Below the pieces are notes generated by a model. That model saw nothing but the letters and a program-made list of their open reading frames with translations, had not been told where the DNA came from and ran no database searches. Shown here in pieces: positions 43,444-61,785 of a stretch of 64,000 nucleotides of DNA. Every line of letters begins with the position of its first letter. Position 1 is the first letter of the stretch. The translations under genes were made by a program, and so were the position numbers. The stretch covers positions 11,831 to 75,830 of the forward strand of contig DATJPT010000017.1 of NCBI GenBank assembly GCA_035506275.1, read 5' to 3'. This DNA is from Bacteroidota bacterium. Its GTDB lineage: Bacteria; Bacteroidota; Ignavibacteria; UBA10030; UBA8401.

Positions 43444-43934
43444 GTGGTTTTTCCGCTGACCGAGTATAGTTCCTTGATTCGTTCGATCACCAGGGTCGTT
43501 GAACGATCCGGGATGAACGGAATGGTGAGGACTTTTCCCCCCGATCTTTCGACAACATCTTTTCCCACAACGTCGTCGATCTTCCAATCGGCCCCTTTGA
43601 CCAGAATGTCGGGGACCAGAGCGCTGATCGTTTCATACGGAGTTTCCTGGCCGAAGATGCATACGGCGTCCACGGCCTTCAACTGAGACACGAGATATGC
43701 GCGGTCCTCTTCGCCGACGACGGGACGGCGCGGTCCCTTGATTTTTTTGACCGACGCGTCGCTGTTGACCCCGACGATCAGCGCATCGCCGAGAGAACGC
43801 GAAGCGGCGAGATACTCGACATGGCCGCGGTGCAAAATATCGAAGACCCCGTTCGTAAAGACGACCTTCTTCCCCTCCTTTTTCCAACGAAGACGAACGT
43901 CGATCAATTCAGCGAGTGAGAAGACTGTTCCCAT
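43440..43934 (-). CDS. hldE: D-glycero-beta-D-manno-heptose 1-phosphate adenylyltransferase (RfaE/HldE domain II, stand-alone)
   Basis: Cytidylyltransferase-fold motif VVFTNGVFDILHRGHVEYL (HxGH); 164 aa. Confidence 0.8.
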   Translation of the reverse strand: MGTVFSLAELIDVRLRWKKEGKKVVFTNGVFDILHRGHVEYLAASRSLGDALIVGVNSDASVKKIKGPRRPVVGEEDRAYLVSQLKAVDAVCIFGQETPYETISALVPDILVKGADWKIDDVVGKDVVERSGGKVLTIPFIPDRSTTLVIERIKELYSVSGKTT

Positions 43935-43961
43935 GGCAATTTCGAAAAATCTATTCGAACG

Positions 43962-44957
43962 TTAAGACTGGAAGGAAAGAACTCTTGCGAGCAGCGCATC
44001 AGGAAGTATTGGGACGATGCCGACCTCGCCGCACACGACGCCGCCGGCAAAATTGGCAAGGCTTGCCGATTCGTAGATTGACGCGCCCGACGCCATCGCC
44101 ATCGTGAGCGTGGCGATCACCGTATCGCCGGCGCCGGAGACGTCGGCGACATGCTGCGCCCGCGTCGGCAAATGGAGCAGGGAGCCCTTATCATCCAGCA
44201 AACTCATCCCTTGTTCTCCGCGCGTGATCAGGATATTTTCTGCATTCAATTTTTCCTTCAACGCGCCGATGGCTTCGCGAAGGCTCTCGTCGGTGGCCAA
44301 CTTCATGCCCAGCGCTTCCTCGACCTCTTTTCTGTTCGGCTTAAACACCGAGGCATTTTTGTATTCGAAGAAGTTTTGGAACTTGGGGTCGACGGTGACA
44401 ATTTTCCTCTGACCGCGCGCCATCTCAATGATGTGATGGATCAAGGAGGCGGTGATGACCCCTTTGTTGTAGTCTTCGAGGATGATGCCGTCCAAGCTGG
44501 CAATGCTGTTCCGCAGAATCGAGAGGATCTGCTCCTGCACCGACGGGGAAATATCCCGTTTTTGTTCGTTATCGATCCTGACGACATGCTGGCCATGAGC
44601 AATGACGCGTGTTTTCACCGTCGTAGGCCGTGAAGGATCTTTTACGATCCCGCTTATTGGACAATTCTGCCCGGCGAGAAGTTTTGTCAGCAAATCGCCG
44701 TCGGCATCATCGCCGACAACGCCGACGAGGACCGGCTCCCCCCCCAGGGATTTGATATTATTGGCCACATTGGCGGCCCCGCCAAGCCGTTCGGTTTCCT
44801 TCTCCACCTCCACGATAGGAACCGGAGCCTCGGGGGAAATCCGGCCGACGGATCCCCAGAGATACTTGTCCACCATGACATCGCCGATAACGGCAATGCG
44901 CTTGTTTTTGAATTTTGAAAGAAGCTCTTTAAGCCGCGTTTCGGAAAACGTGACCAC
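43962..44957 (-). CDS. hldE: D-glycero-beta-D-manno-heptose 7-phosphate kinase (RfaE/HldE domain I, stand-alone; PfkB family)
   Basis: RIAVIGDVMVDKYLWG ... GGAANVA ... DVSGAGDT PfkB motifs; no ATG upstream of the domain, so GTG 44957 is proposed as start. Confidence 0.7.
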   Translation of the reverse strand: MVTFSETRLKELLSKFKNKRIAVIGDVMVDKYLWGSVGRISPEAPVPIVEVEKETERLGGAANVANNIKSLGGEPVLVGVVGDDADGDLLTKLLAGQNCPISGIVKDPSRPTTVKTRVIAHGQHVVRIDNEQKRDISPSVQEQILSILRNSIASLDGIILEDYNKGVITASLIHHIIEMARGQRKIVTVDPKFQNFFEYKNASVFKPNRKEVEEALGMKLATDESLREAIGALKEKLNAENILITRGEQGMSLLDDKGSLLHLPTRAQHVADVSGAGDTVIATLTMAMASGASIYESASLANFAGGVVCGEVGIVPILPDALLARVLSFQS

Positions 44958-45029
44958 GTTGACTTTTACGTAAGTAATTGAAACAGTTATAGATAGCGAA
45001 ATATAGCACTTTGGTGGGCGACAATCAAT

Positions 45030-45068
45030 AAAAAAGGCTGCCTCGGAGGTCCGAAGCAGCCTTTTTTG
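45030..45068 (-). terminator. rho-independent terminator downstream of the cytochrome gene
   Basis: aaaaaaggctgcctcggaggtccgaagcagcctttttt, a hairpin flanked by A- and T-runs. Confidence 0.5.
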
Positions 45069-45091
45069 GCCAGTGTACGCTGAATCCGATC

Positions 45092-47218
45092 TTACTTCAT
45101 CATTAACATCTTCTTCGTCACGATGTAATTTGGCGCTCCGTTGGATTGGGCAACCAGTCTGTAGAAGTAAATGCCGCTCGAGACTGTTGCACCGTGATTG
45201 TTCGTTCCGTTCCACGTCACTTTGTAATGGCCGGAGACGATGTCGCCGCTGACGAGGGTCTTGACAAGTTCGCCAAGAATATTGTAGACGTTCAACTGAA
45301 TCGTCGCAGAACGCGGAACAGAGAACTCGATGTTCGTCGACGGGTTGAACGGGTTCGGATAGTTCTGGCTGATCTCGTACGACGTCGGAGTCTTTTGGCT
45401 CACAACCTCAACGCCGGTCGGATAGAATCCGAGGGCCTTTTGCAGAAGGGCGACGGCGTACTTCGCATTGTGGACGCCCATGCTGCCGTCGTTCGTTACA
45501 AACGAATAGGTGTAAATACCCTGAACGAGATCGGGCCGGTTCTTTACCTTAAGGCTGTCCTTGATCGCCAGGGTCGGCTCGCCTGTCAGGCTGTCGATTG
45601 GCAGTCTGGCTTTGAGAAGAGCCAGGAGGCCGGCGACTTCGGTCTGCACGCCTTCGATTTTTCCGTTGCGGTCGTAGTCGTAGCTCGCTTTGACGTCGTC
45701 AAACGATTGGATTCCGGACCCATGGCAGGTCTGGCATGCTTCGGTATGGTCGTGCATAACGCCTGTACCGACCGTGTCCGACATCGATAATTGATGCTGT
45801 CCGCTGCCGTGCATATGGCATGTAACGCAGGCATCCGGAACGCCGGCATGAGTCATTAATCCGGTGAGGCTGCTGTCGCCGTACTGGTACGCATTCTGAC
45901 CGAAGAACATATCGGCTTGCGGATTACCGTGCGGGCCATAATGGTCAGCGAAACCGTAATACGGAGCTTTGGTCGTCACTTTTGTTGCAACGTTGTACCG
46001 CGACCGGTGGCAGTTCATGCAAAGCTGGCCAAGGCCGCCGATTCCAGCCGGGACGACATAACCGTTCCGCAGTGTATCGACGCTGACCGTTCTCAACTGA
46101 TTCGGGTTCGCTGCGCTGTGCGGATCATGGCAGACTGCGCAAGTGATAGGATAGCTAGCATCGCTTGAACTCCACGTGGACGCTGATGCCGGCTTTCCAG
46201 CAACAACCCATTTCTCGAATGCGCTTCCGCTGTGGCAGGGGAAGCAGCTCGTAGACGTTGCGACCTTGCCGGCAAGCGGCATTGTCGCATGATCCGATAG
46301 TGACCAATACGTGCCGGAGACATGGTGGGGGGGCGCATCGTGACATGACTGACACAAGCCTGCATCAAGAGAGAGGCCGATTTTTGAGATGTCGCCGTTG
46401 TGATCTTTGCCCGGGCCGTGGCAGCTTTCGCAGCCGATGCTCGCCAGCGGGAGCAGCGACGAATAATTCGCCGCCATGTTTTTATAGATTGAAGAATCGC
46501 CGTTGAAGATCAGATAACTGCTGCCGGATTTTGTCTTTCCCTTAAACGCCGTCGTGTCCCATCCAAGCGAATGGGCCATGTATCCGAAATTTCCGTCATT
46601 TGCCGAGAGGTCGTAGCCCGTCGTATGGCATTTCCAGCAACTGGCGGAGTACGATCCTTGACCGTATGCGTTGACTTCCAACTCTCCCATTATTCCCTGT
46701 GTGTAGATCTTAGCATGCCCCGTTCCCTGCCAATCGCTGTAATTCGCCGCGTGGCATTCACCGCAATACAAACCTGATGTATTCGGGTTCCCAAGGAACG
46801 TGCTCACAAAGAAAGTGTCCTGGTCGGTGCTTGTGCCGCCGTTCACAGACACATTCACTATGTATTGACCGGCCGAGTCTGCCGTGAAACTCTGACGCGG
46901 ATTGTTCCCGGCGCTGTCGAATGACGCGTTCGATCCTGTCGGCTTCGCGGCAAACGTCCACGTGAACGACGTTACAACCGTTGTTCCGGATCCGGTGGTA
47001 TCGGCAAATAAATATGCGCGCGCTCCTTTGCCGATCACCTTAAGGCCTGTTGTGGCAGTGTAGCTGCTCTTTCCGATCGCCGCCAGCTTTCCCGGGGACA
47101 TTGGTACAACCGTGAGCTTCACCGTCTGCGCCACCGCTCCTGAATATACGAGGCCAAGTAGGCATCCGGCAAGCAACCCTCTCAAAATATTAGCAAATCT
47201 GTTCATTGTATTCTCCAT
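45092..47218 (-). CDS. nonaheme c-type cytochrome with N-terminal Ig/FN3-like domain and a T9SS C-terminal sorting domain
   Basis: Signal peptide; nine CxxCH motifs (CGECH, CWKCH, CESCH, CQSCH, CFPCH, CAVCH, CMNCH, CVTCH, CQTCH); C-terminus NYPNPFNPSTNIEFSVP ... YFYRL ... TKKMLMMK. Confidence 0.8.
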   Translation of the reverse strand: MENTMNRFANILRGLLAGCLLGLVYSGAVAQTVKLTVVPMSPGKLAAIGKSSYTATTGLKVIGKGARAYLFADTTGSGTTVVTSFTWTFAAKPTGSNASFDSAGNNPRQSFTADSAGQYIVNVSVNGGTSTDQDTFFVSTFLGNPNTSGLYCGECHAANYSDWQGTGHAKIYTQGIMGELEVNAYGQGSYSASCWKCHTTGYDLSANDGNFGYMAHSLGWDTTAFKGKTKSGSSYLIFNGDSSIYKNMAANYSSLLPLASIGCESCHGPGKDHNGDISKIGLSLDAGLCQSCHDAPPHHVSGTYWSLSDHATMPLAGKVATSTSCFPCHSGSAFEKWVVAGKPASASTWSSSDASYPITCAVCHDPHSAANPNQLRTVSVDTLRNGYVVPAGIGGLGQLCMNCHRSRYNVATKVTTKAPYYGFADHYGPHGNPQADMFFGQNAYQYGDSSLTGLMTHAGVPDACVTCHMHGSGQHQLSMSDTVGTGVMHDHTEACQTCHGSGIQSFDDVKASYDYDRNGKIEGVQTEVAGLLALLKARLPIDSLTGEPTLAIKDSLKVKNRPDLVQGIYTYSFVTNDGSMGVHNAKYAVALLQKALGFYPTGVEVVSQKTPTSYEISQNYPNPFNPSTNIEFSVPRSATIQLNVYNILGELVKTLVSGDIVSGHYKVTWNGTNNHGATVSSGIYFYRLVAQSNGAPNYIVTKKMLMMK

Positions 47219-47484
47219 GTGTCAACGTTTTAGAAATCCACCAGGCTTCTGGTGCATCTAGTCGGATTTGCTATATCTTCCGCAACATTTGTGCCATACA
47301 AAACGCGTTGGAAGGTCGAAATTTGTTCAAAAATTAACTGTTTATTATTTCAACAATCAATATTTCCCAAAAGTAAAGCTTTTCTTTTCCAAAAAAATGG
47401 AAAAAATATGATAATTGGATAAGATTTCGCAATATGAAAGGCTGCTGACAACTGAGCTCAATGATTTTCTAATCGCAGAAACGA

Positions 47485-47521
47485 CAAAAAAAAGGCGTGA
47501 AATTGTAATTTTTCACGCCTT
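47485..47521 (-). terminator. rho-independent terminator after the FadL-like outer-membrane protein (OMP) gene
   Basis: aaaaaaaaggcgtgaaa-ttgtaa-tttttcacgcct; on the minus strand the hairpin is followed by a T-run. Confidence 0.55.
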
Positions 47522-47592
47522 CAAAATTTACAGCTACCGTTGATACCTGAACTCACGACCCCCAATAACCCTGCCCCCCCGCCCCAGAAGAA

Positions 47593-49050
47593 TCAGAACC
47601 TGTACGAAATAGTGAAGTCGACGTTCGTTGTCGAAACGGTCTCGTCTGTCCGCGAGAGGTTAAGCGATTCATCGCCGTAGTTGTTATGGAAGTTCTTGAA
47701 CGATCCGAACATCGCCGCTGCATCGATCATCACATTATCCTCGATCAAAATCCCGGCGCCGGCAGTAATGGTGGTCAGACCGAACGTCGACGGATCGCCG
47801 GCATACGGCGAGGGCTTGAAGGAATAGCCCGCCCGCAGCCGCACATCTGTTTTGGGGATCTCGAACTCGCCGCCAACAGCATAATTAAGCGTCGAACGAA
47901 ACTGCTGTTTTAACGCAATGTTTTCGTTCTCCAGATCGGCGTTGTCGGTCCACTGAAGCTGCGTCCAATCGGTATATTCAACTTGCCCGGAGAGAAGAAG
48001 ACCGCGCACCGGCGAATACGAAGCACCGGCCCCGAACACCCAGGGAGTTGTTATGCCATAGTCGTTGTTCGCGTCGTATGAATAGTAGTACCCTGTCGTA
48101 TCATCGAACGCGCTTTGTCCGGCGTTCGTATATGTTTCATGAACGGTGAACGCCGTCGGAGTTTTGATCGTGATGCCGAAACGGGCAATATCTTCGTACC
48201 GGTACATAAACCCGAACATCGCGTTGACGCCGTTCAAATCGCTCGTCAGCGTGCTGTTGTAGTTGAACGCATTGAATTCCCGGTAGAGGGAATCGGGAAG
48301 AACATATCCGTCCGCATCGTAGAAACGGGTCGGATCATTGTAGACGTTATTGACGTCCGATTCGTTGTAGTTCCTGACATAATTGTATGTTCCGTTGAGG
48401 AGGTTGATCGTCACACCGAAAGAAAAATCCTTCGCGAGATCGACGGCCCCGGAGAATGCCCACGTGCCCATGCTGCCGCTTTCGCTGACATTTCCTTGCT
48501 GCTGGACATTTTTCTGGATCGGAGTGTAGCCGTCCGAATTTTCAAGATACGTTTGAAAGGGGATGTCAAAATTTGCATCCGCATCGTACAGCCACGGGAT
48601 GATCGAGCTCTTCGCGTTGAAGCCGTTGAACGAAAGCGCGGTTGCATAATTATTCACTCTGTTGTAACCGACGGCAAAGACCAGGCTCCCGCGCGAGGTC
48701 GGAACGGGGAACACGAGCCCCAGATCGTCAAGGTTGGTGGCGCTGTTGCTGGCCGACGACGACGTTCCCAAAAACGTTGCGCTGTTCGAATAGTTGGTAT
48801 TGACAATGCCGCCGGTGAACTCTAGTCTCCTCATCTGAGCCAGGCCTGCCGGGTTCCAGAACGTTGCGCTGTAATCATCGGCTACGCCGATGTATGCGCC
48901 GCCCATGCCTTCCGCCCGTGCACCGACTCCGAATCCCGTGGATGAAAAACGGTATGCATCCTCAGCAGACTGGGCACGAAGATAAGAGATATTCAGCATG
49001 ATCAGTCCGAACAATAAAATGAACAAAGTGACACAGCGATTATTTTTCAT
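47593..49050 (-). CDS. FadL/TodX-family-like outer-membrane beta-barrel protein (possibly PorV-type)
   Basis: Signal peptide; N-terminal GFGVGARAEGMGGAYIGVADDYSATFWNPAGLA block resembling the FadL N-terminal hatch motif (G.GRA.SG.GA.ADDAS..NPA); alternating beta-strand pattern; C-terminal ...FTISYRF; GGAGG RBS at the 49050 start. Confidence 0.6.
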   Translation of the reverse strand: MKNNRCVTLFILLFGLIMLNISYLRAQSAEDAYRFSSTGFGVGARAEGMGGAYIGVADDYSATFWNPAGLAQMRRLEFTGGIVNTNYSNSATFLGTSSSASNSATNLDDLGLVFPVPTSRGSLVFAVGYNRVNNYATALSFNGFNAKSSIIPWLYDADANFDIPFQTYLENSDGYTPIQKNVQQQGNVSESGSMGTWAFSGAVDLAKDFSFGVTINLLNGTYNYVRNYNESDVNNVYNDPTRFYDADGYVLPDSLYREFNAFNYNSTLTSDLNGVNAMFGFMYRYEDIARFGITIKTPTAFTVHETYTNAGQSAFDDTTGYYYSYDANNDYGITTPWVFGAGASYSPVRGLLLSGQVEYTDWTQLQWTDNADLENENIALKQQFRSTLNYAVGGEFEIPKTDVRLRAGYSFKPSPYAGDPSTFGLTTITAGAGILIEDNVMIDAAAMFGSFKNFHNNYGDESLNLSRTDETVSTTNVDFTISYRF

Positions 49051-49285
49051 AGGTATCCTCCGCTTCCACTCCCATCCGTCTCCGCGATTCGGCCGGTTAT
49101 CCGTTCGGCAGGTTATCGATACAACTGAGGTTCGACCCGTTGCCCTGCTGCAGCCGGCAGACACACCGTTTGCTTTAACAATCGAGCAGCCGGAGGGGGG
49201 GTGCAGGTGTTGTCGTGATTATGGTGAATGTTAGACAATTAATATGCTAAAAACTTCTTGACCGTAGTGTCGGGAGAAATCTCTC

Positions 49286-50164
49286 CTATCTGCCTCTATT
49301 CCTGCCGCCTCCGCCTCCCCGGCTTCCGCTGCCACCGCTCGATGCTCTGCCGCTCGAACGCTGCGGTGCCGAATAACCCTGATGAACCATTTGTCTTGAT
49401 TGCGGCTGCGCGTACCTTGCCGAAGGCTGAACTCGTCCACGATGTTGGTACATCTGCCGGACGTTGGAGTTTCTCGAGCCATAGCTGGAATATCTTCCGC
49501 GGCTGGCCACCGTCGCCTGCCGCGAAGCGACCGTCGATCTATTCGCCCTTTGCCACCAGGGAATTTCCTGGCGCGTTCGTGAGGCAGACGGGCTTGTCGC
49601 TACTGCTCCCGGCGCATTAGGAGTCCTCCCCCTTGATGGGGTGACTCCGTTGGCAGGGATCACCCGGCCGGGAGAGTTCGGCGCAACACGACCGGCGAAG
49701 TATCCGAAACTTCCGCGCCCGCTGCCAATGGTGCGCTGCCTCGTCGCAAAATTCCTCCCTCCGTACCAGCCATGGTATGCGTGTCCATAATACCCGCCGT
49801 AACCGTAGCCGTATCCGTAGCCATAACCCCATCCGAATCCGAACCCGTATGGATACCACAGCCCCCACGGGTAGTAGTTGTAATCGAACCACGGGTCGTA
49901 GCCAACTGCCGACGCGTAATACTCCGGCGGCGGATAATAGTAATCGAAGGCCATATGGTATTGCGCGTCGCGATAGCTGTCATCATCGAAATAGCTCGCG
50001 CTCGTCGAGTCGCTCGACGACGTCGTATCGGTGTAAGCATAATCATCGTCCCCTCCCGCCCATCGTTCGCTCACCGTTTCCGTGTGAGTATAACAGCCGG
50101 CGAACAAAAGCCCGGCTGCCGAAAGAGGGATCAATCCATTGAGAAAGCTTCGCAGTGTTTTCAT
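49286..50164 (-). CDS. Gly/Tyr/Trp-rich low-complexity lipoprotein with Arg/Ser/Gly-rich (RGG-like) C-terminal tail
   Basis: Signal peptide plus LFAGC lipobox; acidic Tyr-rich segment, then GFGFGWGYGYGYGYGYGGYYGHAYHGWYGG, then RS/RG-rich tail ending SGGSGSRGGGGGRNRGR; GY codons vary at wobble positions. Confidence 0.45.
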   Translation of the reverse strand: MKTLRSFLNGLIPLSAAGLLFAGCYTHTETVSERWAGGDDDYAYTDTTSSSDSTSASYFDDDSYRDAQYHMAFDYYYPPPEYYASAVGYDPWFDYNYYPWGLWYPYGFGFGWGYGYGYGYGYGGYYGHAYHGWYGGRNFATRQRTIGSGRGSFGYFAGRVAPNSPGRVIPANGVTPSRGRTPNAPGAVATSPSASRTRQEIPWWQRANRSTVASRQATVASRGRYSSYGSRNSNVRQMYQHRGRVQPSARYAQPQSRQMVHQGYSAPQRSSGRASSGGSGSRGGGGGRNRGR

Positions 50165-50239
50165 ACCAGGTTCCTTCCTCCTTCCGATGTCAATACTAAC
50201 ACTAACAGCGGAAAGGAATCGTTCATTCCCGTTCCGGAA

Positions 50240-51016
50240 TTACAGCACTCTGACGTATTCTACTTTAATAGTTCTGTTTCCTATCGTGACGTTGTTCTGA
50301 TTTCTTACAAGATTCTTCAAATCGCATCCGATCGTAAAACCATTCCCCCACGACCATCGCAGGCCGCTATTCAAATATCCCTTCCCTTTGCCCACCACGC
50401 CGATATTGTCATTCAAGCCAAAATCATATTCTGCAAGCAGCGATATGTCCGATCCGAGGGACTTTTCAGCGCCGACAAAAAAATCGAGGCTTTTGTTGCC
50501 GTCCTTGTTCTCGAGGCTGTAATTCGTCCCGCCGTGGAGGCTCAGGTTGCCCATCAGAGAATAGTTCTTGCTGGCTGCGGCGTAAAAACCGCGGGACTTG
50601 ATCGTGAAGCGCTGCAGGCTGTCGATGTAGGTCTCTTTACCCTGCGAATCGAACCCGAGGGCGATCGCGGGCATCGCCATTGTCTCATCGAATAAGCGAA
50701 ATTTCACGTTGACTCCCGGAAGTCTTTGCATCGTAATATCGTCGTGGCCGATAATTCCGGTTCCGCCGTACGAGACGCCGAAGTTCAACCGGTCGAGCGC
50801 TCCGGCCGTCAATCCGACCGTCATTCCCCCCTCCTGAAAGAAGTCGACATCCATCGCGAAAGCTCCTCGTTTTAAGAGCCCGCCTGTCGGCGTATCGATG
50901 ATATATCTTGGTTCGATGTTTGCTGCATCGCCGGCCGTGTTCTGCGCTAAAGACAAGCTGTAAATAAAGAACGAAGAAAAGATGAATAACAGTTTCTTCA
51001 CTGATATTCCTTCCAT
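50240..51016 (-). CDS. small outer-membrane beta-barrel protein (about 258 aa), family unknown
   Basis: Signal peptide MEGISVKKLLFIFSSFFIYSLSLAQ; alternating hydrophobic beta-strand pattern; TTGACA-like element and GGAGGAAGG RBS upstream. Confidence 0.5.
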   Translation of the reverse strand: MEGISVKKLLFIFSSFFIYSLSLAQNTAGDAANIEPRYIIDTPTGGLLKRGAFAMDVDFFQEGGMTVGLTAGALDRLNFGVSYGGTGIIGHDDITMQRLPGVNVKFRLFDETMAMPAIALGFDSQGKETYIDSLQRFTIKSRGFYAAASKNYSLMGNLSLHGGTNYSLENKDGNKSLDFFVGAEKSLGSDISLLAEYDFGLNDNIGVVGKGKGYLNSGLRWSWGNGFTIGCDLKNLVRNQNNVTIGNRTIKVEYVRVL

Positions 51017-51089
51017 TAGATTAGACGAACCATCGCGCAAGAAGTTTACCCATACCACGCCCTATTCTGCCCGATAATGTATGAAGATT

Positions 51090-52538
51090 TCACTCCTTTT
51101 TCCACGTGGTGCCGGTTTTCGTATCCTCGAGCACGATGCCGAGCGCTTTGACAGCATCGCGGATCTTATCCGATAATGCCCATAATTTCTGATTCCGAAT
51201 TTCTTTTCGTACGGCGATGATGAGATCCATCAAACCGGCCTCCGTGGAGCCCCCCCCCGATGCGTTGGATGATGCGGGGGCCAAAGAAATTCCGAGGACT
51301 CCTGAACAGAGATCCTCAAACATCTTCTCCGTTGTTCGAAGTGCCTTTTCCGTCGGGAGTGATCCCGGCCTCAACCAGTCATTAACTTGGGATGAAAGGT
51401 CGAAGAGAACAGCGATCGCTTTCGGGGTATTGAAATCGTCGTTCATCGCTTCGAGAAATGCAGTCCGGAACGGCGTTACGTCTTTCTCGGTCATGCCGAA
51501 AGAGGAAGTTCGGCTGGCGAAATCGATCGTCTCCCGAAGCCTCCGTAGCGTACTCTGCAGCTTTGCAAGTCCTGTCCCCGATGCCTCCAGCGCCTGTTCG
51601 CTGAAATCGAGCGTGCTCCGGTAATGGCTTTGCAGGATAAAAAAGCGGATAACGGCAGGGTCGAATTTTTTATAGAGGTCCTTGAGCGTGACAAAGTTGC
51701 CGAGGGACTTCGACATCTTTTGGCCGTTCACGGTCACCAGGTTGTTATGGATCCAGTATCTCACGAACGGCTTGCCGGTTGCAGATTCGCTTTGCGCGAT
51801 CTCGCATTCGTGGTGAGGGAATTGGTTGTCCAATCCCCCTCCATGGATATCGAACGTCTCGCCGAGGTACTTCATCGACATCGCCGAACACTCCACGTGC
51901 CATCCGGGGAAACCCTCGCCCCATGGACTCTGCCATCGCATGATGTGTTCCGGTTCCGCTTTTTTCCAAAGGGCAAAATCTTCCGGATTCCGTTTTTCGG
52001 ATTTCACTTCAACCCGGGTTCCCTCTTTCATCTCATCGATCGTCCGTCCGGAGAGCTTCCCGTAGGCCTTGAATTTCCGGACATCAAAATAGACGGAACC
52101 GTTCACTTCGTACGCATGCCCGTTCGCAAGAAGCACCTTCACGATCTCGATCTGCTCGATGATATGCCCCGATGCTCTCGGGGAAATATCGGGACGAATC
52201 ACGTTGAGAGCGTCCATGTCCTCGAAATAACTCCGTGTGACCGCCTCCGCGATCTGCATTGGATGAACTTTTTCGATCCGCGATTGCTTCAGCATTCTGT
52301 CCTCGCCGTCGTCGAGCAAGTGCCCCACATCGGTGATGTTCTGCACATACAATACTTTGTTGCCGAGGTAACGAAGGTAGCGGACGATCACATCGAACGA
52401 AACGTAGCTCTTGCCGTGGCCGATGTGCGAATCGCTGTAGACCGTCGGACCGCAGACATACATCCCTACGTAGCCCGCATGAAGCGGTTTGAATTCTTCC
52501 TTCGTCCGGGTAAGCGTGTTATAGAAAGTTAATGGCAT
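51090..52538 (-). CDS. cysS: cysteine--tRNA ligase
   Basis: CGPTVYSDSHIGHGKSY (HIGH) and KMSKSLGN (KMSKS) class-I motifs. Confidence 0.92.
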   Translation of the reverse strand: MPLTFYNTLTRTKEEFKPLHAGYVGMYVCGPTVYSDSHIGHGKSYVSFDVIVRYLRYLGNKVLYVQNITDVGHLLDDGEDRMLKQSRIEKVHPMQIAEAVTRSYFEDMDALNVIRPDISPRASGHIIEQIEIVKVLLANGHAYEVNGSVYFDVRKFKAYGKLSGRTIDEMKEGTRVEVKSEKRNPEDFALWKKAEPEHIMRWQSPWGEGFPGWHVECSAMSMKYLGETFDIHGGGLDNQFPHHECEIAQSESATGKPFVRYWIHNNLVTVNGQKMSKSLGNFVTLKDLYKKFDPAVIRFFILQSHYRSTLDFSEQALEASGTGLAKLQSTLRRLRETIDFASRTSSFGMTEKDVTPFRTAFLEAMNDDFNTPKAIAVLFDLSSQVNDWLRPGSLPTEKALRTTEKMFEDLCSGVLGISLAPASSNASGGGSTEAGLMDLIIAVRKEIRNQKLWALSDKIRDAVKALGIVLEDTKTGTTWKKE

Positions 52539-52755
52539 TTTTTTCGGATGCAGAGGTGTTGGGTGTTCGGTATTGGATCATCGTGATTGAAGTGCTGAGA
52601 TGAAACTGTTAGATGCCGGCTCAAAATATGCCGTTGTATCTTTCTCCCGAAGGGACGGCTGAAATTCATTTTTGCTTCTCTGTCAACAGATGGAGAACGG
52701 GTTCGCCCTTCTTTTGGGGGATTGGGCTGCGCTGACGGGAGACCGTCAACATGCA

Positions 52756-54465
52756 TCATTTTCGCCCCATCAACTCCCGCGCGCTCTTCAACCCGGCCTC
52801 AGTGATCTTCTCTCCGCTCATCAGCTTCGCAACTTCCCGTATCCGTTCTTCAATGCCGAGCTTGCGCAAGCTGGTCGTCGTCCGTTTCCCGTCTTCAATT
52901 TTCTCGACCGCAAAATGCGTGTCTGCTAGTCCCGCGATCTGAGGAAGGTGAGTGATCGTGATGATCTGATGAAGCGAAGCGAGTTTCTTCAAGCTTACGC
53001 CGACCGCCTGCCCGATGCGTCCGCTTACGCCGACATCGATCTCATCGAAGATAAGAAGCGGGACTTTGTCAGAGGCGGCGAGGGCAGATTTCAACCCGAG
53101 CATGACGCGCGAAATTTCCCCTCCCGACGCTACTTTTGCGAGCGGCTTGAGGTCCTCGCCGACGTTCGTCGAAATAAAGAACTCGACCAGATCGACCCCT
53201 TTTGGCGTTGCCTCGAAGGACTCTTTCCCTAGCTGAACATAGGCATCGGCGGCGCCGGCCTTCCCCGCCACATTCGCGATGCTCACCCAGAATTTTGCGT
53301 TCATAATGCCAAGCTCGGCAAGCGAAGCAACGATTTCTTTCTCGATCTTTTTCGCTGATTCCCGCCGCTTTTTTGTCAATTGCTGGGCAGCAGCCGAGCA
53401 GACCCGGCGTTCCTCAAGGATGGCTGCGTCGAGCGATGCGAGCTCTTTTTCAAAATTCTCTGCCAGAGAAAATTCGCTGCCGATCTTCCGGCGGTGTTCA
53501 AGCAGCGACTCGAGCGTGCCGCCGTATTTCTTTTTCAGAAGCGAGAACTGTCCGAGCCGTTCCCGGATCTGTTCCAGCTTCTCAGGGTTGAACTCTATTT
53601 TTGCGTTATAGGATTGAATGAACTTCGACAATTCTTCGACGATGATCTCTGCCGATTTCGCCTCCCCGGCAGCGTCGGCAAACACAGGATCGATCTCCCG
53701 CAGGGTTTCGATCTGCTTCCAGGCCTGAACAAGATGATCGTGGACCGAGGACTCGCCGTCATAGAGAAGCTGGCTGAGCTGCGAGGTCAGCTCATGAAGC
53801 TTTTCCGCATTTTCCAGAAGCTTCAGCTCCGATTCCATGGATTCTTCTTCTCCGGCCTGCGGATCTACAGCATCGATCTCCTTCATTTGAAATTCGTAGA
53901 GGTCCTTCTTCTCCTTCAAACGTAATTCTTGCTCCTGCAGGTCGCGTTTCTTCGAAAAGAGATCGGAGAGCTTCTTGTAGGATCGGCGATATTCTGCGAG
54001 GAGGCGCTCATCGCCGCCAAATTCATCCAGAAAATCGATATGCGTTTCCGGACGGAGCAGGGCCTGGTGGTCGTGCTGGCCGTGCAGGTCGACGAGGATG
54101 TCCCCGGCCTCTTTGAGGAGTGAGAGCGGAACGGGAGAATCGTTGATGAAGCAGCGGCTCTGCCCTTTCACCGAAATTTCCCGCCGGACGATCATTTCGT
54201 CCGACGGGTCGATGTCGTTTTCCGTGAGAAGCATTTGAAGTTTCGGCGAACCGGCAATCACGAAGGTCCCTTCGACAATGGCTTTCTCGGCCCCCTTGCG
54301 TACAACATCCGAACTGGCCCGCTCGCCGAGAAGCAAGCTTAGTGCGTCGATGAGGATTGATTTTCCCGCCCCCGTTTCGCCGGTGATAATGTTCAATCCG
54401 CGCTCAAAATCAACGTTGATTTCTTCGATGAGGGCATAGTGTTTGACGTAGAGGGAACGCAGCAT
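52756..54465 (-). CDS. recN: DNA repair protein RecN
   Basis: N-terminal Walker A GETGAGKS, long coiled coil, C-terminal signature/Walker B. Confidence 0.9.
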   Translation of the reverse strand: MLRSLYVKHYALIEEINVDFERGLNIITGETGAGKSILIDALSLLLGERASSDVVRKGAEKAIVEGTFVIAGSPKLQMLLTENDIDPSDEMIVRREISVKGQSRCFINDSPVPLSLLKEAGDILVDLHGQHDHQALLRPETHIDFLDEFGGDERLLAEYRRSYKKLSDLFSKKRDLQEQELRLKEKKDLYEFQMKEIDAVDPQAGEEESMESELKLLENAEKLHELTSQLSQLLYDGESSVHDHLVQAWKQIETLREIDPVFADAAGEAKSAEIIVEELSKFIQSYNAKIEFNPEKLEQIRERLGQFSLLKKKYGGTLESLLEHRRKIGSEFSLAENFEKELASLDAAILEERRVCSAAAQQLTKKRRESAKKIEKEIVASLAELGIMNAKFWVSIANVAGKAGAADAYVQLGKESFEATPKGVDLVEFFISTNVGEDLKPLAKVASGGEISRVMLGLKSALAASDKVPLLIFDEIDVGVSGRIGQAVGVSLKKLASLHQIITITHLPQIAGLADTHFAVEKIEDGKRTTTSLRKLGIEERIREVAKLMSGEKITEAGLKSARELMGRK

Positions 54466-54495
54466 GGAAGAAGTTACGCGGAATTTCGGAGAGTT

Positions 54496-55314
54496 TCAAC
54501 CGTTGTCCGATTGTTCCCCGCCGAACACTTCTATCTCCGGCACATCGGGAAAGATGCCGAGGTAAAAAGCATAGCGAAAGAATTCACCGAGAGCTTCCCT
54601 GGCCTCGTGGTCGAACCCGTAGGTAAAATGCTCAAGCTGACGTTCAAATTCGTCAACCGGATATGGCAGCGTTTTCGACTGCTGCAGTGCGATCGAGGGG
54701 ATCGAGGCAGCCCCTTTTTCCTGGGAAGCAAGAAGCATTGCCGCAATCTCTTTTTTGTACTTCTCCTTGCGGCCGGCACAGACGAGATGGACATACGGCA
54801 GGTCCGTCATGTCCGACCATTCATCGACGAGGTCGAGCGTTGGCCCCTCCCATGCCGAGGTCAACGAGGCGTTCCCCGTCACGAGAGCCGCATCGGCCTT
54901 CGACAGCATTTCCGGCACCGTGCCGAGTACAGGAACGACAACGACCTGCTGCTCGAATTTTTCGGAGAGAATGATCTTGGCGAGAACGATATCGGAGGAT
55001 GAGACGGCGCCCACGGCGATGGAACCGATCGCACGCGAACTTCGATTGACGCACAGGACGCTCGTCCGGCTTTCACCGCGTGAAGCGACGCCGATCGAAG
55101 GATAGAGCGAAAAGTCCGAGCTGTTGCGCGCAAACTCGACGGGGCCGATCAGCGCGGCATCGCACTCGCCGCCGAGGATTCGTTCGGCGTTGATGCCGGC
55201 GCTTTCAAAGAAAAGTCCCGCCGAAGCGGGACTCTCAGGCTGCTGCAATCCGGCAAGCACCGGCCGGCAGTAAAAATCGGGGATCGCTCCGATGCGGAGC
55301 GGGTCTTCGGCCAC
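54496..55314 (-). CDS. MqnA/MqnD-family protein (menaquinone via futalosine; chorismate dehydratase-like)
   Basis: LRIGAIPDFYCRPV ... LVDEWSDMTDLPYVHLVCA pattern of the PF02621 family. Confidence 0.6.
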   Translation of the reverse strand: MAEDPLRIGAIPDFYCRPVLAGLQQPESPASAGLFFESAGINAERILGGECDAALIGPVEFARNSSDFSLYPSIGVASRGESRTSVLCVNRSSRAIGSIAVGAVSSSDIVLAKIILSEKFEQQVVVVPVLGTVPEMLSKADAALVTGNASLTSAWEGPTLDLVDEWSDMTDLPYVHLVCAGRKEKYKKEIAAMLLASQEKGAASIPSIALQQSKTLPYPVDEFERQLEHFTYGFDHEAREALGEFFRYAFYLGIFPDVPEIEVFGGEQSDNG

Positions 55315-55319
55315 GGGGT

Positions 55320-55661
55320 TCAGCTGCTGGTTTTTTGGCGGATCTGTTTCGCCGCAAGGTCGCGGAGATAATACAGTTTCGCCCGGCGCACTTTGCTCGA
55401 CTTCATTTTTTCGATCTTCGCGATGCGCGGCGAGTGTGTCGGGAAAATCCTTTCCACGCCGACGCCGTCGGAAACTTTTCTGATCGTGAATGTGGCCCCC
55501 ATGCCGCTTCCGCGCTTGCCGATGACGACCCCCTGGAACTGCTGAATGCGCTCTTTATCCCCTTCGATAACGCGCACGTGGACGTTCAGCGTGTCCCCCG
55601 GTGCAAAGTCGGGGATATTCGTTTTCAGCTGGGTGGCTTCTACTAATTTGATCTTGCTCAT
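55320..55661 (-). CDS. rplS: 50S ribosomal protein L19
   Basis: Conserved L19 sequence ([29 protein letters not shown]). Confidence 0.92.
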
Positions 55662-55685
55662 TGGTGTACTCCGTTCATTAACCTG

Positions 55686-56372
55686 TTATTTTTTATGAAT
55701 CAAATCCTTGCGCCGTTCCTCCGTCCGCTTCGTTCTCTCTTCATCGCGCCATGCGGCAATTTCTTTGTGATTCCCCGACAACAGAACATCCGGCACCTTC
55801 ATTCCGCGGTATTCCGGGGGCCGGGTGTAATGCGGGCTGTCCAGCAATCCATCCTGGAACGAATCGGTCAACGCCGATTCTCCGTCTCCGATCACGCCCG
55901 GTATCACCCTTACCACCGCGTCGGTGATGACCAGCGCGGCCAATTCTCCGCCGGTGAGCACATAGTCGCCGATCGAGATCTCCCGCGTGATGACCGATTG
56001 CCTGACGCGGTCGTCGACTCCTTTATAATGACCGCAGAGGATCATGATGTTCGATTTCAACGAGAGTTCGTTCGCGGTCCTTTGCGTGAACGGCTCGCCG
56101 TCGGCGGTAACGTACACGATTTCATCGTACGTCCGCTCTGCGTTCAACGACTCAACGCACTCGACGATCGGCTCCGGCTTCAGGATCATCCCCGCGCCGC
56201 CGCCGTACGGGGGTTCGTCGAGCGTATGGTGCTTATCGTGCGTGAATTTCCGCAAATCATGCACGACGATCTCAGCCAGCTTCTTCTCCTGAGCGATCCT
56301 GAGCATGCTTTCGTTCAGCGGACTCGCGAGCAATTTCGGAACCGCAGAAAGAATATCGATGCGGATACTCAT
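55686..56372 (-). CDS. trmD: tRNA (guanine37-N1)-methyltransferase
   Basis: SPOUT-fold TrmD motifs (DEPPYGGGAGMILKPEP, GHYKGVDDR). Confidence 0.92.
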   Translation of the reverse strand: MSIRIDILSAVPKLLASPLNESMLRIAQEKKLAEIVVHDLRKFTHDKHHTLDEPPYGGGAGMILKPEPIVECVESLNAERTYDEIVYVTADGEPFTQRTANELSLKSNIMILCGHYKGVDDRVRQSVITREISIGDYVLTGGELAALVITDAVVRVIPGVIGDGESALTDSFQDGLLDSPHYTRPPEYRGMKVPDVLLSGNHKEIAAWRDEERTKRTEERRKDLIHKK

Positions 56373-56381
56373 ACCATCTCC

Positions 56382-56963
56382 TTACTCACGCCCGCCGAAA
56401 AGTCCTTCGGGAGGATCGACCTCGATCGTACGATTTTTCACATCCACGCGGCGGACAATGCCTTTCACGGCCGGAACCATCACATCGCCCCCTTCGGTCT
56501 TCACAACGTAGACGTCCTGCGCAGGATACCTGACGACATCGCGCACAACGCCGAGCGTTTTTTCCCGTGAATCGTGCACCGACATCCCGATGATGTCGTC
56601 GATGAAAAATTCACCGGGCGCCAAATGCTTGCGCGCCTTCTCTTCAACGAATAAGAAATGGCCGACGAGCGCCTCCGACCCGTTCCGGTCATTGACATCC
56701 TGAAACTTCAGATAAATATCGGCTCCCCGCGTAGCGACGTTCTCGATCTTCATCGCAACGGCGGCGGCCTCCTTTTTTCCCGTCAGCACGGTCCCGAGCT
56801 TCTCGAACTCCTGGGACGATCGTGAATAGGAATGCACCTTCACTTCGCCTTTCACGCCGAACACTTTTGCGATCACGCCTATCGCCAGCAGATGGGAACG
56901 GTCCTCATGGTTCGATTTCACAGCGACCTGCGCATTCAGAATGACGGCTGCATGCTGCCTCAA
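56382..56963 (-). CDS. rimM: ribosome maturation factor RimM
   Basis: LAIGVIAKVFGVKGEVKV PRC-barrel protein in the canonical rpsP-rimM-trmD-rplS position; exact start uncertain. Confidence 0.8.
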   Translation of the reverse strand: MRQHAAVILNAQVAVKSNHEDRSHLLAIGVIAKVFGVKGEVKVHSYSRSSQEFEKLGTVLTGKKEAAAVAMKIENVATRGADIYLKFQDVNDRNGSEALVGHFLFVEEKARKHLAPGEFFIDDIIGMSVHDSREKTLGVVRDVVRYPAQDVYVVKTEGGDVMVPAVKGIVRRVDVKNRTIEVDPPEGLFGGRE

Positions 56964-57046
56964 AGGCGCCGAGACACAACGGAGAAAAAAAAGGAGATCT
57001 TCTATTGACAGCCATTGCGCCTGGCACCTCAGTGGTTCGCCTGAAC

Positions 57047-57283: not shown

Positions 57284-57396
57284 CTCCAGTCAAGCTCCTC
57301 AAAAAAATTCCGAACACTGAAGCAGGCAGGCTGCAGGAGTGTTCGAATGTTCATCCCTACGTCGGAGAGACAAATGCTAGCGGGAAGAAACCGCCG

Positions 57397-57822: not shown

Positions 57823-57901
57823 TCGTTGTAGCCTTAATTTTACTGCCAAAGATGATTCTCCTTTTTCTGTAAATATGAATAGATGCCGATTAATATGCAA
57901 C

Positions 57902-59224: not shown

Positions 59225-59229
59225 GGTAA

Positions 59230-59330: not shown

Positions 59331-59335
59331 CTTTC

Positions 59336-60232: not shown

Positions 60233-60234
60233 GA

Positions 60235-61785
<1,551 letters not shown>

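Follow-up and report, generated by a model that had tools for sequence, protein, structure and literature searches.

What might a lipoprotein built almost entirely from low-complexity sequence do in a bacterial envelope, and why should its gene stand between two genes for outer-membrane proteins (OMPs)? The question is raised by one locus in the window, meaning the whole 64,000-nucleotide stretch of DNA analysed here. An earlier note, made from the letters alone, had described the product as a lipoprotein with the sequence grammar of FUS and had linked it to a neighbouring surface cytochrome. The gene proves to be real and conserved, and the evidence from its relatives points away from the cytochrome and towards the two barrels that flank it.

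The lipoprotein gene and its product

The gene and the parts of its product are listed below.

50171..50185, minus strand: putative Shine-Dalgarno-like, purine-rich stretch GGAGGAAGGAA (GGAGG/AAGGAA), read from the sequence, 7-21 nt 5' of the ATG
49286..50164, minus strand: coding sequence of the lipoprotein precursor, 292 aa, from the list of open reading frames (ORFs) and the sequence; ATG start, stop codon at 49286..49288
50096..50164, minus strand: signal peptide, residues 1-23, MKTLRSFLNGLIPLSAAGLL, with a Lys/Arg n-region, a hydrophobic core and the lipobox L-F-A-G at its end, followed in the pattern [LF][FL][AS]G-C by the cysteine
50084..50095, minus strand: predicted lipidated Cys24 and the invariant Cys-Tyr-Thr-(His/Gln) of the family alignment, a proposed docking element by analogy
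49949..50083, minus strand: acidic Asp/Ser/Thr/Tyr stretch, residues 28-72, with a conserved Y-F-x-D-D-x-Y-R (composition and invariant columns)
49754..49948, minus strand: aromatic Gly/Tyr/Trp/Pro block, residues 73-137 (FDYYYPP ... DPWFDY ... YPYGFGFGWGYGYGYGYGYGG ... WYGG; composition and invariant columns)
49712..49741, minus strand: conserved short linear motif R-x-R-T-I-G-S-x-R-G, residues 142-151
49289..49711, minus strand: basic disordered Arg/Ser/Thr/Gly/Pro/Gln tail, residues 152-292, ending SRGGGGGRNRGR (composition, pLDDT <50)
49547..49567, minus strand: subfamily motif E-I-P-W-W-Q-R, residues 200-206, within the tail (conserved columns)

A repetitive ORF of this kind could be spurious, with a repeat that is a slippage artefact and the true gene in an overlapping frame. 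Long stop-free stretches are indeed present in the other two frames, and two of them (49617..49892 and 49660..50046) had been singled out in the earlier note. However, from one orthologue to the next these open stretches range without pattern between 27 and 232 codons in length, and they are therefore by-products of composition and not genes. In the annotated frame, by comparison, signal peptide, lipobox and motifs are retained by every relative, across 220 clusters. Against the orthologue at locus L025 (81% identical), its overall dN/dS is 0.137, with 0.060 for residues 1-140 and 0.229 for the tail; the comparators are the adjacent OMP gene at 0.044 and cysS at 0.073, with equal dS (about 0.85-0.92). 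GC3, which had been suggested as a further check, is 0.62 in the lipoprotein gene and 0.63-0.66 in its neighbours. The codons of the GY dipeptides are a mixture of GGT, GGC, GGA and GGG with TAT and TAC, and the sole repeat found by Tandem Repeats Finder is an imperfect 6/12-nt array of 27-33 nt with 80-85% matches. Selection at the protein level rather than slippage, as first proposed from the varied codons, is thus upheld. The ORF is genuine and evolves under purifying selection, and with selection on the annotated frame and conservation across the family, a spurious origin is next to inconceivable. No RNA genes came up when the window was scanned with Rfam and for tRNAs.

The segments that had been described in the 292-aa product are confirmed by its sequence and composition. 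Lipoproteins were recognised by a signal peptide (positive n-region, hydrophobic h-region) followed by [LVI][ASTVI][GAS]-C; here an n-region starting MKTLR and a hydrophobic core lead into the lipobox L-F-A-G-C24, and lipidation is predicted. Residues 24-72 contain 11 D+E as against 2 R+K, along with 15 S/T. In the aromatic block (residues 73-137), 29 of the 65 residues are aromatic (45%) and 16 are Gly, with a GYGYGYGYG core. The balance of charge is reversed in residues 138-292, with 26 R+K as against 1 D+E, as well as 31 S/T and 23 Gly. The charge-segregation z is an extreme -16.8, and the family median is -7.5. Both GFGFGWGYGYGYGYGYGGYYGHAYHGWYGG and the terminal ...RGGGGGRNRGR are present. 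Set beside a prion-like domain of the [G/S]Y[G/S]Q type, the chain has nine GY and nine YG dipeptides, but its aromatic block is rich in Trp, Pro and Phe and poor in Ser and Gln. RG occurs six times and GR ten times. Because there is only one strict RGG, 'RG/GR/SR-rich' describes the tail more accurately than 'RGG-rich', the label under which it was first presented.

Almost nothing in the chain looks globular, again as originally claimed. An AF2 model built on a 23-sequence alignment has a mean pLDDT of 39.8, a pTM of 0.13 and no fold; its only secondary structure is the signal helix (residues 4-21), and outside the signal peptide pLDDT rises above 50 only at residues 200-206. The whole mature chain is accordingly modelled as intrinsically disordered, with the build of a block copolymer. 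Within it, particular positions are fixed. In alignment A1, the invariant columns are Y42, D46, Y58, D61, D62, Y64 and R65 in the acidic stretch, F73, Y75, Y76, P78, Y104 and P105 in the aromatic block, and R142, R144, G147, R150 and G151 in the motif that follows, which distant members and short paralogues repeat as R-x-R-x-x-G-S/T-T-R-G. Around the tail motif, R198, W203 and W204 are invariant and E200 and R206 reach a conservation of 90% or more; PWW is found in the short paralogues too. A chain that is disordered yet under purifying selection (dN/dS 0.06 in the aromatic half) is a rare natural case for the study of disorder in the bacterial envelope, where the functions in view include self-association, adhesion and the binding of polyanions or minerals.

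The family and its partner genes

Word searches recovered 26 close homologues, and a profile search recovered 220 cluster representatives at E<=1e-3, nearly all of them full-length (290-370 aa, about 300 aa being typical). The repeat architecture is conserved in these relatives, a point on which the earlier note had made its reading depend. Every member is unnamed or annotated 'hypothetical'. Pfam and NCBIfam gave no match, even at E<=1, to the window lipoprotein or to up to 10 distant members, and a search of the PDB with the family profile returned only linker or low-complexity noise (E>=0.035) and no PDB relative. By sequence comparison, these proteins form a previously unnamed family in uncultured Ignavibacteria-like bacteria. 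It numbers 220 or more sequence clusters and defines a new domain-of-unknown-function model.

At the mature N-terminus the family has Gly-Cys-Tyr-Thr. C-Y-T, including the Cys itself, is found in 162/162 members, the lipobox position -1 is Gly in 158/162, and Gln occupies position +3, counted from the Cys, in 113/162 (His in the window protein). Short paralogues share G-C-Y-T. As judged from the alignment, this invariance far exceeds the demands of a lipobox. Elsewhere in the DNA examined there are only two candidate lipoproteins, starting C-S-A and C-P-V, so that a check on whether Cys-Tyr-Thr is general to the lipoproteins of this organism is underpowered (n=2).

Beyond this start, it is composition that characterises the family. 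Its median net charge is -6 in the N half and +17 in the C half; the N half is 27% aromatic; Arg stands at 10.9% vs 0.7% for Lys. The last 10 residues are mostly G, R and S, and the aromatic block differs between lineages in length and sequence. In low-GC members, Lys partly takes the place of Arg. The Arg bias is thus partly compositional, and the conserved property is therefore a 'basic disordered tail' and not RGG.

The lipoprotein gene lies between two OMP genes, with the surface cytochrome gene next to these, as the earlier note had placed it. The neighbouring features are as follows.

50240..51016, minus strand: upstream 12-stranded outer-membrane barrel ('YjbH domain'/FapF-like), small and highly conserved; start at GTG 51001 or ATG 51016
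47593..49053, minus strand: downstream FadL-family barrel, 14-strand-type, 486 aa from ATG 49053 (Pfam Toluene_X)
47491..47522, minus strand: terminator-like hairpin with a 12-bp stem and a T-run, a putative terminator found by consensus scan

This order, with the 12-stranded barrel 5' of the lipoprotein gene and the FadL-family barrel 3' of it, recurs as a cassette at 11 distinct close loci. At every locus, the lipoprotein gene or its short paralogue is followed directly on the 3' side by a FadL-like barrel gene, and a 12-stranded barrel gene lies almost always 5'. Three contigs that were chosen through the barrel and not the lipoprotein each have a family member adjoining. Distant members (L018, L019 and L024) keep the cassette between different flanks. 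In a metagenome-assembled genome (MAG) labelled Marinimicrobia, the lipoprotein and FadL-like pair is kept without a 12-stranded barrel upstream, and this barrel is therefore not universally required. The 232-nt spacer between the lipoprotein and FadL-like genes folds no better than shuffled sequences (z -0.35), and no remnant of a short paralogue was seen in it. Because the lipoprotein gene always adjoins one or two barrel genes, the lipoprotein and barrels look, from gene order, like an undescribed envelope module. The invariant Cys-Tyr-Thr and the obligate pairing with FadL-like and FapF/YjbH-like barrels are the most informative features to be added to the earlier note.

The upstream barrel is 253 aa long from GTG 51001, which is the length of most homologues, or 258 aa from ATG 51016. 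FapF is the top fold match of its model, which has the 12-stranded beta-barrel of FapF. However, it lacks the plug helix and coiled coil of FapF: only about 25 residues separate the signal peptide from the first strand, no helix is modelled there, and the barrel has no plug of its own. No match to the FapF sequence family was found for it, and Fap genes are absent at all loci examined. Against the YjbH family of Pfam (PF06082) it reaches 18.6 bits, below the gathering cut-off of 24, and only over profile positions 11-101 of 658. Some of its homologues have precomputed PF06082 matches and the NCBI name 'YjbH domain-containing protein', but a 253-aa single barrel scoring below the cut-off is not a YjbH/GfcD protein. 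A profile of the 12-stranded barrel matched OmpA weakly in the PDB, and phmmer searches of the PDB with both barrels were uninformative.

The downstream barrel belongs to the FadL/TodX family, with 56.3 bits against Pfam Toluene_X (PF03349; cut-off 29.7). Two more specific identities were rejected. At 74 bits against a cut-off of 250, it is not an equivalog of BamG (NF053685). PorV and PorQ, which were tested with NF033709 and NF052325, are excluded by scores of 37.8 bits against PorV_fam (cut-off 90) and 40.1 bits against PorV2 (cut-off 325), both over an N-terminal segment only. A profile of this barrel matched a Pseudomonas aeruginosa FadL homologue (3dwo, 8.6e-4) and Porphyromonas gingivalis BamG (9hjm_F, 0.036) in the PDB.

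The other neighbour is a T9SS-sorted, MtrC-like multihaem cytochrome, which adjoins the cassette in the window and in close relatives. This proximity had suggested that the lipoprotein might be a redox or cross-linking partner of the cytochrome in extracellular electron transfer, through Tyr electron hopping or dityrosine, and a short paralogue with a C-L-(N/S)-C-H motif in five lineages fits such a role. However, the lipoprotein itself has no haem motif, and the cytochrome comes and goes while the cassette stays: it is swapped for a GH10-like protein at L005, L009 and L021, is absent at L018-L020, L023 and L024, and is replaced by a penicillin amidase in some lineages where lipoprotein and barrels remain together. 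In addition, the terminator-like hairpin, which is a strong one, follows only the third cassette gene, before the cytochrome gene, and so lies between the two units. Synteny and hairpin together indicate that the cytochrome is a separate transcription unit that is not conserved with the lipoprotein; the proposed link is rejected, and a partnership of this kind is very improbable.

Topology and possible function

The best explanation of these observations, put forward tentatively and by analogy, is that of a disordered lipoprotein which is docked on a barrel and displayed at the surface as a self-associating Tyr/Arg brush. The lipidated Cys-Tyr-Thr-Gln/His N-terminus and its acyl chains would dock on the co-encoded FadL-like barrel, as in known barrel-lipoprotein pairs. 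The unfolded chain might reach the cell surface with help from the narrow 12-stranded barrel, in a manner resembling FapF or autotransporters. Once outside, contacts of Tyr and Trp with Arg, and of the acidic with the basic block, could drive self-association into a sticky brush or gel. Such a layer would bind anionic or hydrophobic material (LPS, exopolymers, eDNA, minerals or humics) and may serve in attachment or matrix formation. Self-association, condensates and ligand binding are predicted here from composition.

A more elaborate version is distinctly doubtful. It supposes a two-barrel machine, in which the FapF-like barrel would thread the chain and the FadL-like barrel would clamp Cys-Tyr-Thr, with the disordered lipoprotein forming a condensate or gel coat on the surface. 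If true, this would be a new route of surface lipoprotein display in Ignavibacteria-like Bacteroidota, and bacteria would have their first natural example of a surface coat that is anchored in the membrane and phase-separates, a 'living glue'. A self-anchoring, sticky polypeptide could also be of use in engineered living materials.

Whether the chain faces outwards at all is the first point on which other readings differ. It may instead be anchored in the inner leaflet of the outer membrane and act as a tether, spacer or plug on the periplasmic side, with the basic tail binding peptidoglycan or anionic phospholipids or entering and gating one or both co-encoded barrels at their periplasmic mouth; the linkers of LpoB and the LptE plug in LptD are comparable. 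The canonical signal for surface export in Bacteroidota (LES) is absent, which counts for a periplasmic protein and against the surface-displayed brush: the window protein has a mature start of C-Y-T-H-T-E-T-V-S-E, with one acidic residue (Glu +5) in +1..+6, and the family has Y-T-Q at +1 to +3 and clustered acidic residues only at +8..+13. The rule (PMC5080379) was derived from Bacteroidia and Flavobacteriia, and may not apply in Ignavibacteria. The small 12-stranded barrel without its own plug would suit a plugging chain, and the motifs RxRTIGSTRG and PWW could be barrel-binding elements. At many loci, the cassette also sits in envelope-biogenesis surroundings, with hldE and then a TamB/AsmA-like giant protein. 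However, these surroundings are lost in distant members, and no peptidoglycan-binding domain was found. In the periplasm, a 270-residue chain would be hazardous, given its aggregation-prone block in which 45% of residues are aromatic. Furthermore, BamG, PorV and PorQ, which are all the characterised protein-binding FadL-like barrels of Bacteroidota, hold their partners on the surface side (PMC12611786, PMC12578637). A periplasmic location is thus unlikely.

The FadL-family partner also invites a reading in terms of uptake, in which the aromatic lipoprotein would be the substrate-capture arm of a hydrophobic transporter. It would adsorb fatty acids, aromatics or humics, or elemental sulphur and feed them to the FadL-family barrel, in loose analogy to SusD on SusC, while the 12-stranded barrel would form another hydrophobic channel, of the COG4313 type. 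Yet no catabolic or activating genes (e.g. fadD) travel with the cassette, whose flanks vary, and the long basic tail has no obvious part in hydrophobic capture. The sulphur version finds no family match to Pfam SGP (PF17228): the window protein and 10 distant members are unmatched at E<=1, with only E=0.11 to one short paralogue, and a literature search found nothing relevant on a link between sulphur globules and the lipoprotein. Identity as a sulphur globule protein was rejected, and a role in uptake is unlikely.

Finally, the chain could be the precursor of a functional amyloid like those of Fap or curli, exported through the FapF-like barrel and assembled through its Gly/Tyr block into extracellular fibres, perhaps once a protease has freed the chain from its lipid anchor. 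In favour of this reading, segments of the GYGYGY type are well known to form steric zippers, and FapF is the top structural match of the upstream barrel. The chain is modelled as unfolded before export, and unfolded subunits are what FapF exports (PMC5557850). However, subunits of curli and Fap fibres have repeats of about 20-40 residues with Q/N/G/A positions and come with accessory genes. Imperfect Q/N-rich units like those of CsgA and FapC are missing from the lipoprotein, in which the only repeat is the short DNA array of 27-33 nt, and no chaperone, nucleator or protease genes (FapA/B/D/E, CsgB/E/F) were found in the loci. A lipid anchor would be unusual on a fibre subunit, and the aromatic block varies between lineages. 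An amyloid precursor is therefore a poor candidate, with less to commend it than the surface-displayed brush.

Comparison with known systems

The comparison with FUS, from which the earlier note started, holds in part. Like FUS, EWS and TAF15, the lipoprotein carries a Gly/Tyr-rich region and, apart from it, an Arg/Gly/Ser-rich one in a single disordered chain where Arg greatly outnumbers Lys, and both its Tyr/Arg composition and its charge segregation agree with such a 'sticker' grammar. Grammar of the FUS type predicts self-association driven by Tyr and Arg. However, there is no homology to these proteins and no RRM or zinc finger, and the lipoprotein is predicted to be extracytoplasmic and lipid-anchored. 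Its aromatic block is also rich in Trp and Pro and is preceded by an acidic block. With one RGG, no Pfam domain and a secretory signal, it was rejected as an RGG RNA-binding protein of the FUS family.

Another lead is offered by the sulphur globule proteins SgpA/B/C, which are secreted, Gly/Tyr-rich structural proteins that coat an extracytoplasmic surface. They differ in being small, in not being lipoproteins, in having no basic tail and in having no link to barrels of these types. CsgF, a curli assembly factor of E. coli, is a further parallel. It is a partly disordered envelope protein which, at the surface of the cell, is seated on a channel of the outer membrane; for the lipoprotein, such a topology is a proposal. 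CsgF forms surface-localised condensates through a functionally important phase separation that depends on aromatic residues, and is thus a precedent for phase-separating bacterial surface proteins (PMC10133297). It is not a lipoprotein, however, and is much smaller, binding the CsgG nonamer and taking part in the nucleation of curli. The two are not similar in sequence, and no curli genes are found here.

For the upstream barrel, the relevant systems are those in which a 12-stranded barrel is associated with an unfolded protein. FapF has a plug helix and a periplasmic coiled coil, and is encoded in the fapABCDEF operon (PMC5557850). The N-terminal barrel of YjbH/GfcD is classed in the FapF family, and the operon partner GfcA is natively unstructured (PMC8346858). 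Unlike FapF, the upstream barrel has no plug helix, coiled coil or trimerisation region. The similarity to YjbH covers the N-terminal barrel only, with the peptidoglycan-binding domain and second barrel missing. Neither FapA-E nor GfcB/C/E genes are found at the cassette, and the candidate substrate is lipid-anchored (as predicted) and Tyr/Arg-rich, where those of Fap are built from Q/N/A/G repeats and GfcA is Thr-rich. The cassette also extends a recurring association of FapF/YjbH-type 12-stranded barrels with natively unfolded secreted proteins.

For the downstream barrel, the nearest parallel is BamG. It holds the surface lipoprotein BamH by the latter's conserved, lipidated N-terminus, and there is also a BamG2-BamH2 operon (PMC12611786, PMC12578637). 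PorV-PorU and PorQ-PorZ of the T9SS are looser parallels, and the downstream barrel scores below threshold to both BamG and PorV. The lipoprotein shares no sequence or fold with BamH, which is folded into an arch-shaped scaffold and has a carbohydrate-binding-like domain. BamH is also acidic right after its Cys, which this family is not, and no link to BamA was seen here. The export of lipoproteins to the surface of Bacteroidota and their relatives is still largely open, and the barrel-held N-termini of BamG-BamH were described only in 2025. In both systems, which belong to Bacteroidota/FCB, a FadL-family barrel stands beside a lipoprotein, and a hold through the conserved lipidated N-terminus is proposed here as for BamG-BamH (PMC12611786, PMC12578637). 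The FadL-like barrel, hard-wired to a Cys-Tyr-Thr lipoprotein, provides a second case in which barrel and lipoprotein are paired, one that is compact and open to testing.

A disordered lipoprotein gene under purifying selection

The low-complexity lipoprotein described in the earlier note has its signal peptide, lipobox and three compositional blocks, as had been observed.

49286..50164, minus strand: lipoprotein coding sequence, 292 aa, ATG start
Residues 24-72: acidic Ser/Thr/Tyr-rich block, 11 D+E against 2 R+K
Residues 73-137: aromatic block, 29 of 65 residues aromatic (45%), 16 Gly; contains GFGFGWGYGYGYGYGYGG
Residues 138-292: basic block, 26 R+K against 1 D+E, 31 S/T, 23 Gly; ends SRGGGGGRNRGR

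A purine-rich stretch with GGAGG can be read 7-21 nt 5' of the ATG, and the signal is typical, running from MKTLR through a hydrophobic core to L-F-A-G-C24. A word-indexed search found 26 homologues. When 1.84 billion cluster representatives were searched with a profile built from the window protein and its 22 best homologues, there were 220 matches at E<=1e-3 (76 of them at E<=1e-10), in nearly all cases full-length at 290-370 aa. In a comparison with the L025 orthologue, which comes from a metagenome contig and is 81% identical, dN/dS was 0.137 for the whole lipoprotein, 0.060 for residues 1-140 and 0.229 for the basic tail, compared with 0.044 for the adjacent small barrel and 0.073 for cysS; dS was about equal across the three genes (0.85-0.92). 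The lipoprotein gene is genuine and evolves under purifying selection. There is next to no probability that its reading frame is spurious, because it has these homologues and this dN/dS, and because the stop-free lengths of overlapping alternative frames vary erratically between orthologues, from 27 to 232 codons. Those frames, raised in the earlier note as possible better genes, are open only as an effect of composition. Its view that protein-level selection rather than slippage shaped the repeats is borne out by mixed Gly and Tyr codons, by dN/dS, and by a DNA repeat limited to a 27-33-nt imperfect 6/12-nt array (Tandem Repeats Finder). GC3, which it proposed comparing with the neighbours, is 0.62 against 0.63-0.66 in adjoining genes.

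The lipoprotein and ten distant members have no Pfam or NCBIfam match even at E<=1, no meaningful PDB sequence match was found for the lipoprotein, and its homologues are all named 'hypothetical protein' at source. AlphaFold2 with the family alignment gave a mean pLDDT of 39.8 and a pTM of 0.13, with the signal helix as the sole secondary structure. This prediction makes intrinsic disorder the best description of the mature chain, in agreement with the claim of almost no globular sequence.

Nevertheless, short linear motifs are conserved. Gly-Cys-Tyr-Thr is invariant across the 162 members with a recognisable start, followed by Gln in 113 of them, then a hydrophobic residue and then Thr/Ser; this conservation exceeds what a lipobox needs. 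Further family motifs are Y-F-x-D-D-x-Y-R, F-x-Y-Y-Y-P, D-P-W-Y, R-x-R-T-x-G-S-T-R-G and a Y-S-x-P ahead of the Gly/Arg/Ser C-terminus, with S-R-x-E-(V/I)-P-W-W-(Q/E)-R added in the window's subfamily. The N half has a median net charge of -6 and is 27% aromatic, the C half has a median net charge of +17, and Arg makes up 10.9% of residues against 0.7% Lys. Homologues keep the architecture: sequence-charge-decoration lies 16.8 sd below shuffles in the window protein and at a median of -7.5 sd in the family, with 83% of members below -3 sd. The description of the tail as RGG-rich does not hold, as strict RGG occurs once, beside 6 RG and 10 GR dipeptides. Because two low-GC members carry many Lys and Asn (ending ...GRRR or ...SRTRK), the conserved property is a basic disordered tail, not RGG as such.

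The barrel-lipoprotein cassette and its neighbourhood

50240..51001/51016, minus strand: small outer-membrane barrel gene upstream of the lipoprotein, 75-nt gap
47593..49053, minus strand: FadL-family outer-membrane protein gene downstream, 232-nt gap
47491..47522, minus strand: strong terminator-like hairpin just 3' of the FadL-like gene, 12-bp stem then T-run
45092..47218, minus strand: multihaem c-type cytochrome, 708 aa; Pfam MtrC/MtrF domains II/IV, c7, c554
43962..45215, minus strand: ORF aligning with the hldE-type sugar kinase of related loci, whose counterparts have PfkB and CTP_transf_like
38890..43587, minus strand: 1565-aa ORF just past the cytochrome gene; counterparts match AsmA/TamB/DUF748

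Since the one strong hairpin follows the FadL-like gene and nothing comparable separates the cassette's three genes from each other, the layout suggests one transcription unit, apart from the cytochrome gene. Several independent samples show this gene order. It is found in the close relatives among loci L001-L016, except for the stand-alone paralogue L014; compared with the window, their barrels have 57-86% identity and their lipoprotein only 32-48%, in line with a fast-evolving disordered chain. It also occurs in an Ignavibacteriaceae MAG (L017) and in three distant loci (L018, L019, L024) with flanks unrelated to the window's. On three contigs picked via the small barrel, not the lipoprotein, a family member lay directly downstream in all three, with G-C-Y-T, aromatic block, R-x-x-G-S-T-R-G and basic tail. 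In a Marinimicrobia-labelled MAG the lipoprotein and FadL-like pair persists without the small barrel. Most matches bear the labels Ignavibacteria, Ignavibacteriae, Bacteroidota or Bacteroidetes, and a few read 'uncultured Chitinophagaceae'. Marinimicrobia and Acidoferrales appear once each; Gemmatimonadales and Hymenobacter are the labels of two matches at the weak end (E about 1e-6). With few exceptions these are MAGs, and none was identified as a cultured carrier of the cassette.

The cytochrome has a C-terminal T9SS type-A sorting domain (TIGR04183, 33 bits, cut-off 23), which makes it a candidate for T9SS export and extracellular electron transfer. Close relatives have it at 69-77% identity, but it lies outside the module: L005, L009 and L021 have a GH10-like T9SS protein in its place, and L018-L020, L023 and L024 lack it. 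This synteny contradicts a role for the lipoprotein as redox partner of the cytochrome, which is scarcely credible. Of the earlier interpretation, the disordered lipoprotein with a Tyr/Arg grammar stands and the link to the adjacent surface cytochrome is not supported. The AsmA/TamB/DUF748 and hldE-type counterparts point to an envelope-biogenesis neighbourhood in the window's lineage, not in distant ones. No tRNA gene or Rfam family reached threshold in the 64-kb window (1..64000).

In many loci a further lipoprotein, shorter at 159-211 aa, is encoded after the long one and ahead of the FadL-like gene; the window has none, only a spacer (49054..49285).

L005 6582..7217: short paralogue
L006 10936..11562: short paralogue
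L009 5576..6211: short paralogue
L012 10951..11577: short paralogue
L015 10975..11607: short paralogue

It shares G-C-Y-T, P-W-W, R-x-R-x-x-G-x-T-R-G and a basic end with the long form, and has no significant Pfam or NCBIfam match. Hhalign relates it to the long family with a probability of 97.4%, confined to the signal peptide and N-terminus. In five lineages it contains C-L-(N/S)-C-H-S-Q, which resembles a haem-c binding CXXCH motif; L010 and L013 have a degenerate version of it, and L017 and L024 have none. A 301-aa paralogue of the long lipoprotein (L014 9929..10834, OY970334.1) stands alone, lacking the two barrels. The cassette copy in the same genome (L013) is some 2.47 Mb away, and genes for an ECF-type sigma factor and further small lipoproteins lie within a few kb of the paralogue.

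Proposed surface display and known systems

The downstream barrel matches Pfam Toluene_X (FadL/TodX) at 56.3 bits against a gathering score of 29.7. Similarity to NCBIfam BamG (74 bits, cut-off 250) and to the PorV/PorQ models is subthreshold, and its profile weakly matches a FadL homologue (3dwo, 8.6e-4) and P. gingivalis BamG (9hjm_F, 0.036) in the PDB. By these scores it is classed as a FadL-family member, neither BamG nor PorV. FadL-like barrels of Bacteroidota serve as surface-side platforms that hold proteins: BamG grips the lipidated, highly conserved N-terminus of the surface lipoprotein BamH, the BamG2-BamH2 pair is operonic, and PorV, a FadL homologue, binds secreted proteins (PMC12611786, PMC12578637). 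Unfolded polypeptides pass via FapF-type and autotransporter-type 12-stranded barrels (PMC5557850).

Given the invariant Cys-Tyr-Thr, the obligate gene linkage and these precedents, we infer a model of three steps as the most likely. The lipid anchor and Cys-Tyr-Thr N-terminus would dock onto the FadL-like barrel; the unfolded chain would reach the cell surface, aided by the cassette's small 12-stranded barrel; and the Tyr/Trp-rich acidic and Arg-rich basic halves would associate multivalently into a brush, gel or condensate, a layer that could bind anionic or hydrophobic material. For condensation of this kind on bacterial surfaces, CsgF condensates localised there are a precedent (PMC10133297). 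Gene reality, predicted disorder, conservation pattern and linkage are observed for the cassette; its function and topology are inferred, and its hosts are uncultured.

The canonical lipoprotein export signal needs acidic residues within +2..+6 (PMC5080379). Those of the family start at about +8 after the Cys, and this absence is the main point against surface exposure, and it favours a periplasm-facing tether or plug. The rule may not hold in Ignavibacteria, and a dedicated export route would make the signal unnecessary. A periplasmic position is rather unlikely, as a 45% aromatic disordered block would be hazardous there and the BamG, PorV and PorQ precedents are all surface-side. In Bacteroidota BamA, extracellular loop 3 is also disordered; it is rich in Tyr, Gly and Asn and does not show in cryo-EM (PMC12578637, Extended Data Fig. 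6). This surface-side Tyr/Gly-rich element of the phylum may bear on the behaviour of such sequences there.

The N-terminal barrel of YjbH/GfcD has been placed in the FapF family, and GfcA, operon partner of a YjbH/GfcD-type barrel, is natively unstructured (PMC8346858). Unlike FapF, the window's small barrel lacks a plug helix and coiled coil. A Fap-like amyloid precursor is quite improbable, since the lipoprotein has no repeat units and the locus no accessory genes.

The lipoprotein is a member of no described family. It would resemble BamH-type barrel-docked lipoproteins in its proposed anchoring and Fap/Gfc-type unfolded secreted proteins in its proposed handling, and it resembles FUS-type Tyr/Arg low-complexity proteins in chemistry, but it belongs to none of the three. 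The general kind, an outer-membrane barrel with a cognate lipoprotein, is already known; a fully disordered, strongly selected lipoprotein with an invariant N-terminus, tied to two barrels, would be surprising to specialists in envelopes and disordered proteins, and is directly testable.
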